A stretch of 64,000 bases of DNA. Source: an uncultured Boseongicola sp. (lineage in GTDB: Bacteria; Actinomycetota; Acidimicrobiia; Spongiisociales; ZC4RG35). The DNA lies in assembly GCA_964194555.1 (NCBI GenBank), contig CAXMMT010000094.1:1890-65889 (forward strand). Reading direction: 5' to 3'. The first letter of the stretch is position 1. Each line of letters starts with the position of its first letter. This document shows, piece after piece, positions 39,851 through 57,623 of this stretch. The notes under the pieces are model-generated. The model was not told where the DNA came from. It worked only from the letters and a program-made list of their open reading frames with translations, and searched no databases. Position numbers and translations under genes: made by a program.

Positions 39851-40455
39851 CAGCTACCTCCAAGGAGCTTGGCTTTCTCGGTTTCGAACTCTTGGTCAGT
39901 CAGTTTTTCCTGGTCGTGGAGACGGGAGAGCTTCTCGAGTTGGGACGCGGTCGACTCGGAGGCCGCCGGTGTAGCCCCACCCTCCATGTGAAGTTTTCGC
40001 TGCTCACGCACGCCGTAGATCAGCGCCTGGACTTCCTCTGGCGATGGAATGTCGCGGTATCGGGTCTGACCATGAGTCCCGGCCGACTCGATCAGCAGGT
40101 CGCCGGTCTTGTAGATGCGCTCGAAGATCGTCTGGCTGAATGCGACATCGTTGATCACCTCGAGGGAAATCTCCTTCCCACGCTTGGCTATCCAACCGGC
40201 TCGATAGATCACCCGCTCATTGGTGATGACGTGGTGGGTGGTCAGCCAGCGGGTAACACCCCGAGCTATCAGAGCAATCACACCCACAATCAATAGCGAT
40301 ACGACCCACGCGGGAGTGCTCACGCTGATGAGGAGCCCGCCGAGTACCACGCCAAGAAGAACCAGGAGACCTTCTCTGAGGAGACGGGACCAATGGGGGC
40401 GGAATTGTGCTTCTATCTTCTCGCCGGAGTTGAGTAGACGCTCGGGGTAGCCCAT
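39850..40455 (-). CDS. Membrane protein with bacterial PH domain and SHOCT tail
   Basis: FRPHW, two TM helices, ITNERVI, C-terminal LEKLSRL...LTDQEFETEKAKLL. Confidence 0.88.
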   Translation of the reverse strand: MGYPERLLNSGEKIEAQFRPHWSRLLREGLLVLLGVVLGGLLISVSTPAWVVSLLIVGVIALIARGVTRWLTTHHVITNERVIYRAGWIAKRGKEISLEVINDVAFSQTIFERIYKTGDLLIESAGTHGQTRYRDIPSPEEVQALIYGVREQRKLHMEGGATPAASESTASQLEKLSRLHDQEKLTDQEFETEKAKLLGGS

Positions 40456-40501
40456 GACCGCGGAGCCTAACGGTGAGACCTTGGACGGTGCCTGTCCAGG
40501 C

Positions 40502-40896
40502 GCGAGAAACCCCGAGGGAGTCTTGGCCGAAGCCTCAACCCTCTCGGGGTTCTCTATCCCGTTCGTCGTCCGGCCGGGGACCGGACTTCGATCAGGTTTC
40601 GCCGTTGGCCGAAGCCAGCGGCTATGCGATCCGAGGACCGCTCTCCCCGTTTCCGAGGAGGTTGCAGACCTTGCGGCCTGCTAGCCGTCAGTCCGCTCGA
40701 CGATCCCGAAGGATCCCCGCTCGGTCTGCCGACCGCCCGTTGCCTCCGGTTTCCCTTCGGCTTCGGGTTGAACCTTCCTTCCGGTTTCCCGTCTCTCCGG
40801 TTCGACCTTCCGGCCGGTTTCCCGACCTTCCGGCCTGACCAACCCGACGGTCTCCCGTCGTTTTGGCCCGTCGGAGGGTCTCCCCTTCGACATGAC
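40502..40896 (-). ncRNA. Candidate ~390-nt highly structured non-coding RNA of unrecognised family
   Basis: More than 12 short helices closed by GNRA/UUCG loops only when read on the minus strand; upstream promoter; terminal GC hairpin. Confidence 0.75.
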
Positions 40897-40900
40897 CGGA

Positions 40901-40929
40901 AAAGTAGACCATCCCGATACCTTCCACAA
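40901..40929 (-). promoter_or_regulatory. Sigma70/SigA-type promoter of the large candidate RNA
   Basis: TTGTGG (40929-40924)-N17-TACTTT (40906-40901). Confidence 0.7.
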
Positions 40930-40999
40930 GCCAGAAACCTGATTGTTTTTCGCGAACTGGGTTCTCTTTTCGCGACCCCGCAATTTCGCCAATGAGAAT

Positions 41000-41125
41000 G
41001 CGAGAAACCCCGAGGAAGTCCTGACCGAAGCCCGCCTAGGCCGAAGCCTCCTAGGGCCGAAGTCTCAACCCTCTCGGGGTTCTCACTGCCACTTCGCCGG
41101 GAAAGCGGGCCCCCGACTGGGCGAC
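41000..41125 (-). ncRNA. Candidate ~125-nt non-coding RNA, paralogous to the 3' end of the large RNA
   Basis: 3' domain GAGAACCCCGAGAGGGTTGAG...CTCGGGGTTTCTC shared with 40502-40554; three CTTCGG motifs; own promoter. Confidence 0.7.
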
Positions 41126-41132
41126 AAATCCG

Positions 41133-41161
41133 AACATACGTAACTCCGACATGAGCGTCAA
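41133..41161 (-). promoter_or_regulatory. Near-consensus sigma70/SigA promoter of the small candidate RNA
   Basis: TTGACG (41161-41156)-N17-TATGTT (41138-41133). Confidence 0.8.
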
Positions 41162-41264
41162 GGAGCACCGGCTCAATGTTTTCGCGCCCTGGAAGAACGT
41201 CTCGCGGATCATCCCCGATCAGATTCGGACGGGTGTCGAGTAAGGCCCAGTTAGCGTCATTCGG

Positions 41265-42512
41265 ATGTGGTCCGACCGGAATGTACGACGTGTCGTGCTT
41301 GCGCGACTCATCTCCAGGATCGGTGGAGAAGCGGCATTCTTTGTCGGCATTTGGGGCAAGGCGGCCTTCCAACTCGAAGCAACTGCCAGCGAACTCGCAT
41401 TGGTCATGGCCGCTCTCGGTGTCGCGTCGCTGATCGGCGCCTCGATTGCCGGCGTTCTCATCGACCGCTTTGATCCACGCCGGGTTGTGCTCTACGGGGA
41501 GATCCTCTTCATCCCGTCCGCAATCGGACTGGTCTTTGCCGACACATTGCCTTCGCTGGTCGTCGCCACCTTCGTGCTGGGGCTGGTGGGCACGCCGGTC
41601 TTCACTGCCATTTCGTCGTTTGCGCCCTTCCTGACGGACGATGAGGACAGACTCGCCAAGATCAACGGTTGGATCGAAGGTGCGTCTTGGATGGCCTTCG
41701 TCCTCGGCCCCGCGTTGGGAGCTCTTCTCGTGGTCACGATCAGCGTCGACGCCATCTTCGTACTCGACGCTGTCACGTCTGCCATCGCCGCCCTCCTGAT
41801 TCTTCCCGTTGGAGTGAGACGCCTCTCGGCAAGGGAAGGGGAGAAACACGGCTTCACCGAGATGAAGGAGGGCTTTGCCTACACATACAGCAATCGCCGG
41901 CTCCGGTTTTACATCTGGCTCGGAGCATCTGTCTGGCTGCTCTTCGGTACCTTCGGCTCGCTCGAACCTCTGTTCTATCGCGACGTCCTCGGGACAAGCC
42001 TGGAGACTCTCGGTTGGGTGAACTCGATTTTCGGACTTGGGCTCATCATCGGAACCTTGATCTCCGGGCGATTGTCGGCACGATTCCGCACCGCCCGATG
42101 GCTCACCTTCTTCGTCGCTCTCAATGCAGTAGGCGTTCTCGCCTACGTGGGCACCGACATGCTTCAGGTGGTGGTACCGGCCGGGGCGTTTTGGGGGATG
42201 ATCATTGGTGTGATGGCGCCGCTTCTCCGCACGATGATCCAGTTGAACTCACCCGACGAGATGGTCGGCCGGATCATGGGTGTCACCCACATCCACTCGG
42301 AGGTCGGTCACCTGATTCCGCTGGCGATCGCACCATGGCTTGCCGGCATATTTGGCGTGCAGCCGACGCTGATCGGCGCCGGGGTACTGATAGCAGTCGT
42401 GGCATCACTTTTCTGGCCAAGAGCTGCGCAGCTGGATAGAACCCGGAGGACCGAGGTCCCCCCGACCGGTCTTCCCGATCCGGCGAATGAGCCTCGTTCA
42501 GTGGGACACTGA
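41265..42512 (+). CDS. MFS transporter (macrolide-efflux/DHA3-like)
   Basis: About 12 TM helices, GVLIDRFDPRR motif A, EMVGRIMG. Confidence 0.92.
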   Translation: MWSDRNVRRVVLARLISRIGGEAAFFVGIWGKAAFQLEATASELALVMAALGVASLIGASIAGVLIDRFDPRRVVLYGEILFIPSAIGLVFADTLPSLVVATFVLGLVGTPVFTAISSFAPFLTDDEDRLAKINGWIEGASWMAFVLGPALGALLVVTISVDAIFVLDAVTSAIAALLILPVGVRRLSAREGEKHGFTEMKEGFAYTYSNRRLRFYIWLGASVWLLFGTFGSLEPLFYRDVLGTSLETLGWVNSIFGLGLIIGTLISGRLSARFRTARWLTFFVALNAVGVLAYVGTDMLQVVVPAGAFWGMIIGVMAPLLRTMIQLNSPDEMVGRIMGVTHIHSEVGHLIPLAIAPWLAGIFGVQPTLIGAGVLIAVVASLFWPRAAQLDRTRRTEVPPTGLPDPANEPRSVGH

Positions 42513-55349: not shown

Positions 55350-57623
55350 GTGCCCAAACGAAAGTCACCGAATCCCTACCTCCTCGGCGGCCCCGACGGG
55401 GGTGCGGTGGTCTATCTGCTCGATGTGGCAACCGAACTCGAGGTAGGTCTACTCGAGAAATGGATTCGAACCCAGATAGGGCACCAAATAGAGACGATGC
55501 GGGTCAGCTCCTCCCGACGCGGTCGTGGGGGCGATCCAATCCAGTTGTCAGAGCGGATAGCGGCAGCCGACGACGCGTTTCTCATACCCGTCAGGGTCGT
55601 CTGGATGGCACCCAAGAAGAAGGGACGCAGATCAGTCACATGGTCGGATGCCCTCAGGCCGGGCGACCCGAGAGACCCGAGAGGGTTGCGAGCCCACTGG
55701 ATTCGTACCTTCCGACCCAGTCGACTCAAGCTGATTACAGCGCAGGGGGCCCTCTCGTCAGATCTGTTATCCGACTATCAGTCTTCAGGAGAGATCGATG
55801 GCATCGCGGCATTCGCGACGCGGCGCGTCTGGAGAGTCCTCGACCAGGCTGAGCGCAAGCTCCGGGGAAACCGGTACAAGATCCCCCGATTCGTGCCGGA
55901 AGCCATTCTGTCGCGGCGAGACTTCGTCACCCAGGTCGACGCGTACGCCCGCGAAGCGGAAGTCGACCCGGATCTGGCGCTCACCGACGCCGAACGGTAC
56001 CTGCGGGAGATGGCGGCGACTCACAGCCCCTACGTCATCGATCTGATCGCCAACGCTATCCATGCTCTTTACCGACAGGGATACGGGGAGATCAAGTATG
56101 ACGCGAATCAGGTGGCAAGAGTGGCCGAGTTGGGTCGTTCCAATCCGGTGATCTTTCTTCCCTCGCATCGGTCCAATCTGGATCGCCTCAGCTTCCAGTT
56201 CATGCTCTGGGAGAACGATTTACCACCAAATCACACGGCCGGAGGCATCAACCTCAACTTCTTCCCTGTCGGCCCGCTCATGCGCAGGACGGGTGTGTTC
56301 TTCATCCGGCGATCGTTCCGCGACAACCTCCTCTACAAGATCGTCCTCAAGGCCTATATCAATTTTCTGATCGAGAAACGCTTCCCGATGGAGTGGTACA
56401 TGGAAGGCGGGAGATCCCGATCCGGAAAGCTGGGACCACCCCGGTACGGCCTCCTTCATTACATCGTCGACTCGCTGCGCAGCGGCAAGGCCGAAGACGT
56501 GCAGTTGATCCCGGTCTCGATTGCCTACGACCAGATACAGGACGTGCCCGACTTCACCCGCGAGGCCCAGGGTCGCACCAAGGAGAAGGAATCCATTGGA
56601 TGGCTCTTCAGGGCCGTCCGCTCACTACGTCGACGCCACGGCGACATCCACATCCGATTGGGCGACCCCATATCGGTGGCGTCGGTGATGGGTTCGATCG
56701 ACGAGGGGGAAGAGGTAACGATCGGGCTCCAGAAACTCGCATTCGAGGTCATGTATCGAATTGGGACCGTGACACCGATTACGCCAACTGCCATAGTCAG
56801 TATCGTCCTTCTGGCCGAAAGAGGATCGGCCCGAACCGCCGATGATCTTGCCGGCACAAGCACCCGTCTCATGGATTTCATAACGGCGCGCGATCTTCCC
56901 CTGACAGCAAAGTCCGATCTCTCCGACCCGGAGGTCGTCACCGTGATCCTCGACTCGCTCTCTGAACACGGAAACGTGTCCAGCCATGAAGCACTGGGGA
57001 GAGTCGTCTACTGGCTGGACGACGAGCAGATGATCAGACTCTCCTACTACCGCAACGTCATAGTTCACTTCTTCCTGAACAGGGCGATCGCCGAGATGGC
57101 CCTCACCTCTCTCATCGACGAAGGAGTGCGTGATGCCGAAGTCGCCGAGAATCGGATGCTGTCCCTGAGAGACCTTTTCAAGTATGAGTTCTTCTTCCCC
57201 GAAAAAGAGCAGTTTCTCGGAGACCTATCTGATGATATTGCACATGACGTCCCGGATTGGCGTTCCGTTCTGAGAGCAACGGGCGCCCTCGGAGTCATCA
57301 CCAAGATGGGAGACCCGGTCGCATACTGGGCCGTTCTCCCCTTTCTCGATGCCTATCAGATCGTTGGAGACGAACTCGAAGGACTGACGGGATCGTTCGA
57401 CGAGAAGAAGTTTCTCAAGGCATGTCTGGCAAGGGCTCGGATGTATCGCATCGAGGAGAGACTCTTCTCCGGGGAAAGCGCCAGCCAGGTTCTCTTCAAA
57501 TCGGCCCTGGCACTCGCGAGAAACCGGGGCCTGCTGGACGACGACCCAGAAGTTGGCGAACGGCGGTCGAGGTTCGCCGCCGAAGTGAGAGAAGCGAGGT
57601 CGCTGGCGGCTTCGGGTCTGTAG
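55350..57623 (+). CDS. plsB: Glycerol-3-phosphate 1-O-acyltransferase (PlsB family)
   Basis: SHRSNLD (HX4D), FFIRR, EGGRSRSGK, PVSIAYD. Confidence 0.92.
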   Translation: MPKRKSPNPYLLGGPDGGAVVYLLDVATELEVGLLEKWIRTQIGHQIETMRVSSSRRGRGGDPIQLSERIAAADDAFLIPVRVVWMAPKKKGRRSVTWSDALRPGDPRDPRGLRAHWIRTFRPSRLKLITAQGALSSDLLSDYQSSGEIDGIAAFATRRVWRVLDQAERKLRGNRYKIPRFVPEAILSRRDFVTQVDAYAREAEVDPDLALTDAERYLREMAATHSPYVIDLIANAIHALYRQGYGEIKYDANQVARVAELGRSNPVIFLPSHRSNLDRLSFQFMLWENDLPPNHTAGGINLNFFPVGPLMRRTGVFFIRRSFRDNLLYKIVLKAYINFLIEKRFPMEWYMEGGRSRSGKLGPPRYGLLHYIVDSLRSGKAEDVQLIPVSIAYDQIQDVPDFTREAQGRTKEKESIGWLFRAVRSLRRRHGDIHIRLGDPISVASVMGSIDEGEEVTIGLQKLAFEVMYRIGTVTPITPTAIVSIVLLAERGSARTADDLAGTSTRLMDFITARDLPLTAKSDLSDPEVVTVILDSLSEHGNVSSHEALGRVVYWLDDEQMIRLSYYRNVIVHFFLNRAIAEMALTSLIDEGVRDAEVAENRMLSLRDLFKYEFFFPEKEQFLGDLSDDIAHDVPDWRSVLRATGALGVITKMGDPVAYWAVLPFLDAYQIVGDELEGLTGSFDEKKFLKACLARARMYRIEERLFSGESASQVLFKSALALARNRGLLDDDPEVGERRSRFAAEVREARSLAASGL

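Follow-up and report, generated by a model that had tools for sequence, protein, structure and literature searches.

A putative small RNA as the minimal member of a non-coding RNA family specific to one order of Acidimicrobiia

Which kind of gene, if any, occupies positions 41000 to 41161 of the window, the whole 64,000-nucleotide stretch of DNA analysed here? The window lies on contig C94 of a 2.1-Mb MAG (84% complete, 60% G+C). The first-pass annotation, made from the sequence alone, proposed a small non-coding RNA in tandem with a larger paralogue, the two sharing a 3' module. Both putative RNA genes are encoded by the minus strand, within a divergent intergenic region of 809 nt flanked by the following genes:

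41265-42512, plus strand: MFS transporter gene, one flank of the RNA pair
40455-39850, minus strand: bPH_2+SHOCT gene, the other flank of the RNA pair
39850-38237, minus strand: acyl-CoA ligase gene, after the bPH_2+SHOCT gene

Synteny is conserved in relatives, with a divergent PD-(D/E)XK nuclease gene upstream and a bPH_2 and/or acyl-CoA ligase gene downstream. The large RNA is found downstream of the small RNA, on the same strand and within 1500 nt, in 27 of the 28 copies that could be assessed. The bPH_2 protein was considered as a specific partner of the RNA and discarded, since it is class-wide (127 of 151 genomes), a range that far exceeds that of the RNA and does not track it. The small RNA gene is composed of these predicted elements:

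41199..41206, minus strand: distal upstream box, degenerate (CGCGAGAC), its start 20 nt from that of the proximal box
41179..41186, minus strand: proximal upstream box CGCGAAAA, 17 nt ahead of the -35
41133..41161, minus strand: small RNA promoter, with -35 TTGACG at 41161-41156, a 17-nt spacer and -10 TATGTT at 41138-41133
41001..41125, minus strand: small RNA of about 124 nt, its 5' end (G at 41125) predicted from the -10
41087..41126, minus strand: closing stem P1, UGUCGC at 41126-41121 with GUGGCA at 41092-41087, enclosing P2
41096..41117, minus strand: hairpin P2, GUCGGGGG-CCCGCU-UUCCCGGC, 94.3% paired, with covarying pairs
41002..41084, minus strand: P3, the family-wide terminal hairpin, 83 nt here against the usual 51, 59.6 bits with covariance model R1
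41025..41066, minus strand: 16-nt tandem triplication at the P3 apex, with three CUUCGG (TRF period 16, 2.6 copies, 85% matches)

The near-consensus promoter TTGACG-N17-TATGTT announced by the first-pass annotation is indeed present at 41161-41133 of the minus strand, and it is the sole sigma-70-like site in 40000-41600 (shuffles yield a mean of 0.2). It is kept in position and sequence among relatives, the alignment of which also retains two upstream boxes about 20 nt apart. The RNA would end after UUUCUCG (~41001); as for the promoter and the start, this assignment is a prediction read from sequence. The fold of the small RNA reaches -70.8 kcal/mol (z -3.2), and R2, a covariance model built for the entire small RNA, matches 41127-41001 with 85.9 bits. 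The absence of a credible ORF over ~125 nt, also claimed from the start, is borne out. Three ORFs cross this stretch, at 41051-41212 (minus), 40943-41143 (plus) and 40554-41849 (431 aa, minus, antisense to the MFS gene), and no coding signature was found in any of them. In the intergenic part of the 431-aa ORF, the GC content by codon position is 0.65/0.62/0.58, against ~0.62/0.43/0.72 in neighbouring genes. Moreover, a 32-nt indel relative to relatives breaks any reading frame.

The structure of the small RNA is conserved in 37 distinct homologues across genera, all with P1, the P2 loop CCCGCU and P3. P1, which in homologues is GCCAC/GUGGC and covarying variants of it, displays changes on both sides in five of its six pairs among the 37 relatives. 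For P1 and P2 together, such changes affect 9 of 14 pairs, and the covariation is reached by none of 500 shuffles. P2 is recovered by RNAalifold; its apex GGGGGCCCGCUUUCC is invariant or nearly so, with 10 invariant columns among the 37 homologues. Most genera possess two extra UUCG hairpins ahead of P1. These are missing in the window's genus, in which the promoter stands directly before P1 and the RNA is a bare core. As the RNA is there cut down to P1, P2 and P3, the invariant P2 apex is likely to be its working part. The best 14 R2 matches (78-107 bits; 121 genomes of the order sampled) are all in the window's family.

P3 is the part shared with the large RNA. Its 21-nt 5' arm, GAGAACCCCGAGAGGGTTGAG, is identical at 41084-41064 and 40554-40534, with 0.00 such repeats expected from 100 shuffles, and the 3' arm (41032-41000 versus 40534-40502) is 91% alike, in agreement with the arms described initially. 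The count of three CTTCGG motifs instead of one is likewise correct and corresponds to the 16-nt tandem triplication in the small RNA. The C-rich segments reported ahead of the module were found as CTTTCCC (41105-41099) and TCCCC (40580-40576). The extra 16-nt units lengthen the P3 stem and the fold is kept; as the same-genus relatives L005, L007 and L129 have an ordinary 51-nt hairpin devoid of triplication, the expansion is species-specific. The hairpin consensus reads GAGAR-CCCCGAG-A-GGGYU-GA-GGC-UUCG-GCC-RA-RGCUC-C-CUCGGGG-U-UUCUC, i.e. a continuous stem that is capped by UUCG and contains an A-C (or A-U) mismatch as well as a tandem purine-purine internal loop. In the alignment, 94.7% of cells are paired (35-71% in slid controls), changes on both sides occur in 8 of 20 pairs, and none of 500 shuffles reaches the covariation score. 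The covariance model R1 of this hairpin was built from 139 sequences. Many hairpin sequences were gathered by pattern, so their invariance is partly by construction; the matches obtained by BLAST, which were not collected in this way, show the same core.

R1 identifies three true copies of the hairpin in the genome; contig C21 carries one and the window the other two, and the remaining matches are reverse-strand images or score below 19 bits. BLAST locates the module in 30 of 41 relatives (own genome, G000, included), and, of the 44 high-quality genomes sampled from the order (families f1, f2, f5, f6, f9-f12), 43 have an R1 match. The other 106 genomes of the class yield five marginal matches only (E 1e-6 to 6e-5). 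Across the order, each genome carries one to four copies, usually two in tandem. Thus, the family of two initially proposed stands as regards its conserved 3' module and variable 5' parts; its size has to be raised to three members in this genome and one to four per genome. The annotation had also called for a count of copies by BLAST, in case the module were a dispersed high-copy repeat. With three copies in 2.1 Mb, syntenic places, and a promoter linked to 126 of 154 distinct copies, the module is low-copy and promoter-linked and hence not a dispersed repeat of the REP or MITE type. An exact-pattern scan of the genomes of 185,579 species returned at least 136 stretches. The 80 matches listed are from MAGs titled Acidimicrobiia, Acidimicrobiaceae, Actinomycetota/Actinobacteria, Acidobacteriota/Acidobacteria (11) or simply bacterium, the first of these titles being the main one among public contigs with the element. 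To note, the members in the Acidobacteriota/Acidobacteria-titled MAGs (L033, L046, L055, L057, L058, L067, L078, L080, L085, L087, L095) are near-identical to those in Acidimicrobiia-titled ones, and these titles may be mislabels. A stretch at 55670-55690 (plus strand) that matches the 5' arm with three mismatches is located inside a coding sequence and lacks a 3' arm; it is attributed to chance.

Downstream of the small RNA, the large RNA gene comprises two features:

40901..40974, minus strand: large RNA promoter, with boxes at 40974-40967 and 40954-40947, -35 TTGTGG at 40929-40924 and -10 TACTTT at 40906-40901
40503..40893, minus strand: large sibling RNA of ~390 nt, fold z -8.6, its ends predicted from promoter and hairpin

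This promoter has the same architecture as that of the small RNA. The large RNA is a string of short UUCG/GNRA hairpins, variable in number, terminated by the hairpin at 40554-40503 with its one CUUCGG. A 33-nt tandem repeat at 40761-40833 (2.2 copies, 75% matches) encodes GAAA-capped hairpins separated by GGAAGG, the count of which varies among relatives, whose large RNAs measure 320-496 nt. A CCC loop is found at the place equivalent to the P2 loop, and R2 matches, over its full length, the 3'-terminal 94 nt of the large RNA (40596-40503, 73.3 bits); its score on the C21 RNA is weaker (44.7 bits). The part common to the siblings might therefore exceed the hairpin and include the closing stem and the C-loop hairpin, a homology of P1 and P2 that is suggestive only, since both R2 scores are dominated by P3.

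Expression was assessed from contigs of four metatranscriptome runs belonging to four studies (marine, sediment, outdoor), in which transcript ends and strand are not readable. Hundreds of contigs cover the large RNA (~40485-40891), in all four runs, with summed k-mer depths of 1e5-1e6 in three of them and ~1e2 in X19 (two records). The coverage agrees with the predicted start (~40893) and end (~40503), and the large RNA seems to be among the dominant non-rRNA transcripts of the lineage. One contig spans 40502-40593, including the terminal hairpin. That large RNA contigs reach ~40502 and none goes beyond, in the four runs, is a weak hint of termination at P3, which has a strong stem and a tail, UUUCUCGC, with 4 U in 8 nt, and is not called by a simple terminator scan. 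In the same runs, no contigs were found on the flanking genes, 40892-40965 or 41114-41400, although contigs cannot prove absence. The short transcript that the first-pass annotation called for is seen, weakly, in one of the four runs (X15). Its depth there is 14-31 over 41040-41113, which is specific to the small RNA, and 1636 over 41003-41039, a value that may come from the hairpin arms of sibling RNAs; it falls at ~41001, a weak indication as these are bin averages. Short RNAs are often lost from such libraries.

The promoters of the family follow a single type, i.e. a CGCGAAAA box, N17, a -35, N17 and TAnnnT. In their alignment, two boxes ~20 nt apart are followed by 17 nt, CTTGACG, 17 nt and TAC(N)TT. 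The linkage to 126 of 154 distinct hairpin copies was established with the pattern CGCGAAAA (at most one mismatch), N14-20, TTGNNN, N16-19, TANNNT, and 25 of the 28 copies without a box-promoter had at most 421 nt of upstream sequence. A stricter motif (CGCGAAAW, no mismatch, N14-20, TTGNNN, N16-19, TANNNT) occurs four times in the 2.1-Mb genome, ahead of the three RNA genes and of dnaB. When the first spacer is restricted to N16-18, five near-complete relatives together have 12 sites and the reversed control has 0; the 12 sites are distributed over eight RNA loci, one dnaB, two class II ribonucleotide reductase genes and one other place. The box-promoter stands ahead of dnaB in the genome itself (G000:C78:67460-67625) and in L173 (G141), and ahead of the class II B12-dependent ribonucleotide reductase in L174 (G061, assigned by Pfam) and L178 (G068, by eye). 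The dnaB and reductase leaders open with repeated CUUCCCC(C)G motifs, and the reductase leaders carry palindromes that resemble NrdR boxes and may correspond to them.

The distance from predicted start to hairpin defines several size classes. It is mostly 143-149 nt and in a few cases 124-125 nt in the small class (91-92 or 124 nt in the window's genus), 318-496 nt in the large class, ~147-154 nt in the third class and 209-345 nt in other families. The third member of the genome itself, at 131 nt, is the following:

G000:C21:2239-2437 (L160), plus strand: third member, box CGCGAAAT, TTGGCA-N17-TACGTT, RNA of ~131 nt, hairpin 57.4 bits with R1

It is divergent from a response-regulator-like ORF, and no conserved context was found by tblastn of its flanking ORFs against the loci of relatives.

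No Rfam family matches the window, the region 40300-41400 at E≤10, or the loci of 20 relatives. A literature search found no regulatory RNA described for Acidimicrobiia; motif strings of 16-17 nt gave no paper, and the papers matching 11-mer strings are unrelated. With no Rfam match and nothing found in print, the family appears to be previously undescribed. RNase P RNA and tmRNA were dismissed as identities, both being located elsewhere in the genome.

The nearest known counterpart by arrangement is the mycobacterial locus in which, according to PMC3384566, the 95-nt 6C sRNA of M. tuberculosis lies one gene from the ~305-nt MTS2823, the most abundant non-rRNA transcript of that species. The present small-plus-large pair resembles this locus in size, order and abundance, but not in sequence, structure or flanking genes; here the genes are in same-strand tandem and not on opposite strands, and the 3' hairpin and promoter of the small RNA are common to the large RNA. 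Like 6C (RF01066; MTS2822/B11 of mycobacteria), the small RNA would be a short (~95 nt for 6C) sRNA of actinobacteria that has its own terminator and a hairpin loop rich in C. Unlike 6C, it has one C-rich loop (CCCGCU, in P2) instead of two, the loop of P3 being UUCG. With RF01066 (47-bit cut-off), there is no match in 40300-41400 at E≤10, none in the window at the gathering threshold, and none above the cut-off in 41 genomes of the order. The best 6C match of the genome, C64:1127-1222 (L168/L181), has C-rich loops and a sub-threshold 29.5 bits, and is probably not a true 6C; it adjoins an IS110-family transposase fragment and a gene for a TPR/AAA protein.

The large RNA, for its part, recalls Ms1/MTS2823 and 6S, which PMC4191392 and PMC3384566 place at 300-400 nt and among the most abundant non-rRNA transcripts: it too would be a stand-alone, abundantly expressed gene of this size with promoter and terminator. 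It differs from them by its many short hairpins in place of a long hairpin with a central bubble. The small RNA folds as three short helices, and thus displays neither the bubble hairpin of the Ms1/6S type nor the hairpin string of its large sibling. No 6S RNA (RF00013) was found in the window, in the genome, or in any of 41 genomes of the order. The genes for a HAD-IB hydrolase and an oxidoreductase, which mark Ms1 synteny (PMC9130861), are absent within ~5 kb, where there is no HAD domain.

Sets of sibling sRNAs under one regulator are exemplified by the streptococcal csRNAs (CiaR repeats), Qrr1-5 and RsmX/Y/Z. As in these regulons, several genes have in common an upstream box, a terminator and a portion of the body, and are frequently arranged in tandem; the present siblings differ from them in that they vary about fourfold in length and that the shared part is a 3' domain with an invariant hairpin. 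Neither CsrA (PF02599) nor Hfq was found in the genome, which is 84% complete, so that their absence is not proven; a sponge RNA of the Csr/Rsm type was set aside, its CsrA partner not being found there. P3 also resembles ordinary intrinsic terminators by its GC-rich stem, its U-rich tail, its position at the unit's end and the pairing of this tail with an A-rich 5' flank. It departs from them by its near-invariance across the order, its restriction to one to four RNA genes per genome, its conserved tandem G-A internal loop, its UUCG cap and its short U tract.

The initial proposal that the C-rich loops pair with Shine-Dalgarno sequences, as suggested for 6C, is not favoured. In its full form, the C-rich P2 loop (CCCGCU, flanked by UUUCCC) would pair with G-rich or Shine-Dalgarno regions of mRNAs and block their translation without a chaperone. 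The invariant C-rich apex exposed in a hairpin loop, the CCC loop that the large RNA has in the corresponding position and the similar mycobacterial arrangement of 6C and MTS2823 (PMC3384566) are compatible with such a role, and the lack of a canonical 6C above cut-off in the 41 genomes could leave its niche open. Yet no 6C match appears even at E≤10, one C-rich loop replaces two, and CCCGCU is not the anti-Shine-Dalgarno CCUCC. Exact-word complements of the apex in the genome are limited to the gene itself and ~20 chance-level 10-12-mers, none visibly at a start codon, a weak argument as it rests on exact words in a single genome, and no target is proposed on this basis. The flanking stem bases are invariant as well, which loop pairing alone leaves unexplained. 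We consider a 6C-like function unlikely. A cis-acting leader or attenuator of the bPH_2/acyl-CoA ligase operon, with tandem terminators opened or closed by a factor, would account for the location of the RNA pair upstream of these genes in dozens of loci and for the terminator-like P3 of the large RNA, ~45 nt before the bPH_2 start. The small RNA, however, is followed in 27 of 28 cases by a conserved promoter and an RNA gene and by no protein gene, the third member sits in the unrelated C21 locus, and one promoter type drives all members. In L029, L096 and L071, an opposite-strand ORF of ~190-260 aa lies between the two RNA genes, both units being intact. Such convergent ORFs in several relatives imply that the small RNA is not the leader of a protein gene, and the attenuator model is very improbable.

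Equally improbable is that the small RNA derives from the 3' end of the large RNA as a decaying copy, or is a mere conserved terminator, devoid of a function of its own. The loss of two 5' hairpins and the gain of a tandem triplication in the genus, together with the weak expression evidence, would fit decay; but core and promoter are kept, with covariation, in 37 distinct relatives across genera, the invariant apex is unlike that of the large RNA, and the triplication lengthens the stem while preserving the fold. At the level of DNA, the hairpin is an imperfect palindrome, and its tail UUUYUCGCG is similar to the CGCGAAAA box read in reverse complement, so that the units are loosely flanked by inverted 8-mers, as might be expected of a protein-binding palindrome, a recombination site or a miniature mobile element. 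Against this stand the three copies per genome at syntenic places, the G-U pairs and the A-C/A-U changes that suit one strand only, as RNA, the ~30 bits of the reverse strand versus 57-81, and the recovery of the hairpin in contigs of RNA runs. The constant orientation and the G-U pairs, whose positions are fixed, favour an RNA over a DNA element, and the latter is barely credible.

The explanation retained here is that the small RNA is an independent, trans-acting member of a co-regulated family of sibling RNAs, which, taken as a whole, is reasonably probable. Its status as an independent member of a non-coding RNA family is highly probable in itself; a trans-acting, protein-binding mechanism is advanced more tentatively. 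Each member would be one transcription unit under a dedicated promoter made of two CGCGAAAA boxes, a -35 and a TAnnnT -10, and would yield an RNA of 92-600 nt always ending in the same UUCG-capped hairpin. P3 would most likely have two roles, that of intrinsic terminator and that of a handle common to the family, for stability or for recognition by a protein, while the invariant P2 apex would be the specific working part of the small RNA. Through the box, the small RNA may be expressed in concert with the large RNA and, depending on the genome, with dnaB or nrdJ. We infer that transcription stops at P3, that the box mediates co-regulation and that the RNA acts in trans. Binding of a protein, or of a sibling RNA, would be likelier than antisense pairing with mRNAs; protein binding is favoured because the invariant bases lie in and around GC-rich helices, the apex scan found no complementarity beyond chance, and the loop is not anti-Shine-Dalgarno-like.

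These elements can be assembled into a broader picture, speculative and on the doubtful side. The order would possess a private non-coding RNA regulon of two to four RNAs per genome, all with the same two-box promoter (present also before dnaB or the class II ribonucleotide reductase) and the same invariant terminator hairpin. The large RNA, of huge abundance in metatranscriptomes from marine and sediment sources, would fill the place of 6S/Ms1, and the small RNA, the bare common domain, would be a partner or competitor for a protein reading the hairpin. The pair would then be the counterpart of the mycobacterial 6C-Ms1 locus, either of independent origin or diverged beyond recognition.

Sea water, sediments and soils commonly contain Acidimicrobiia, which are rarely cultured. 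Promoter box and terminal hairpin suffice to identify the family in sequence data, which gives a handle to list its members, to fish for the protein that reads the hairpin and to ask how an abundant RNA is controlled, the large RNA dominating some metatranscriptomes. The promoter type shared with dnaB and ribonucleotide reductase hints at a control linked to growth or replication. The small RNA of the window's genus would offer a natural minimal construct of the shared domain.
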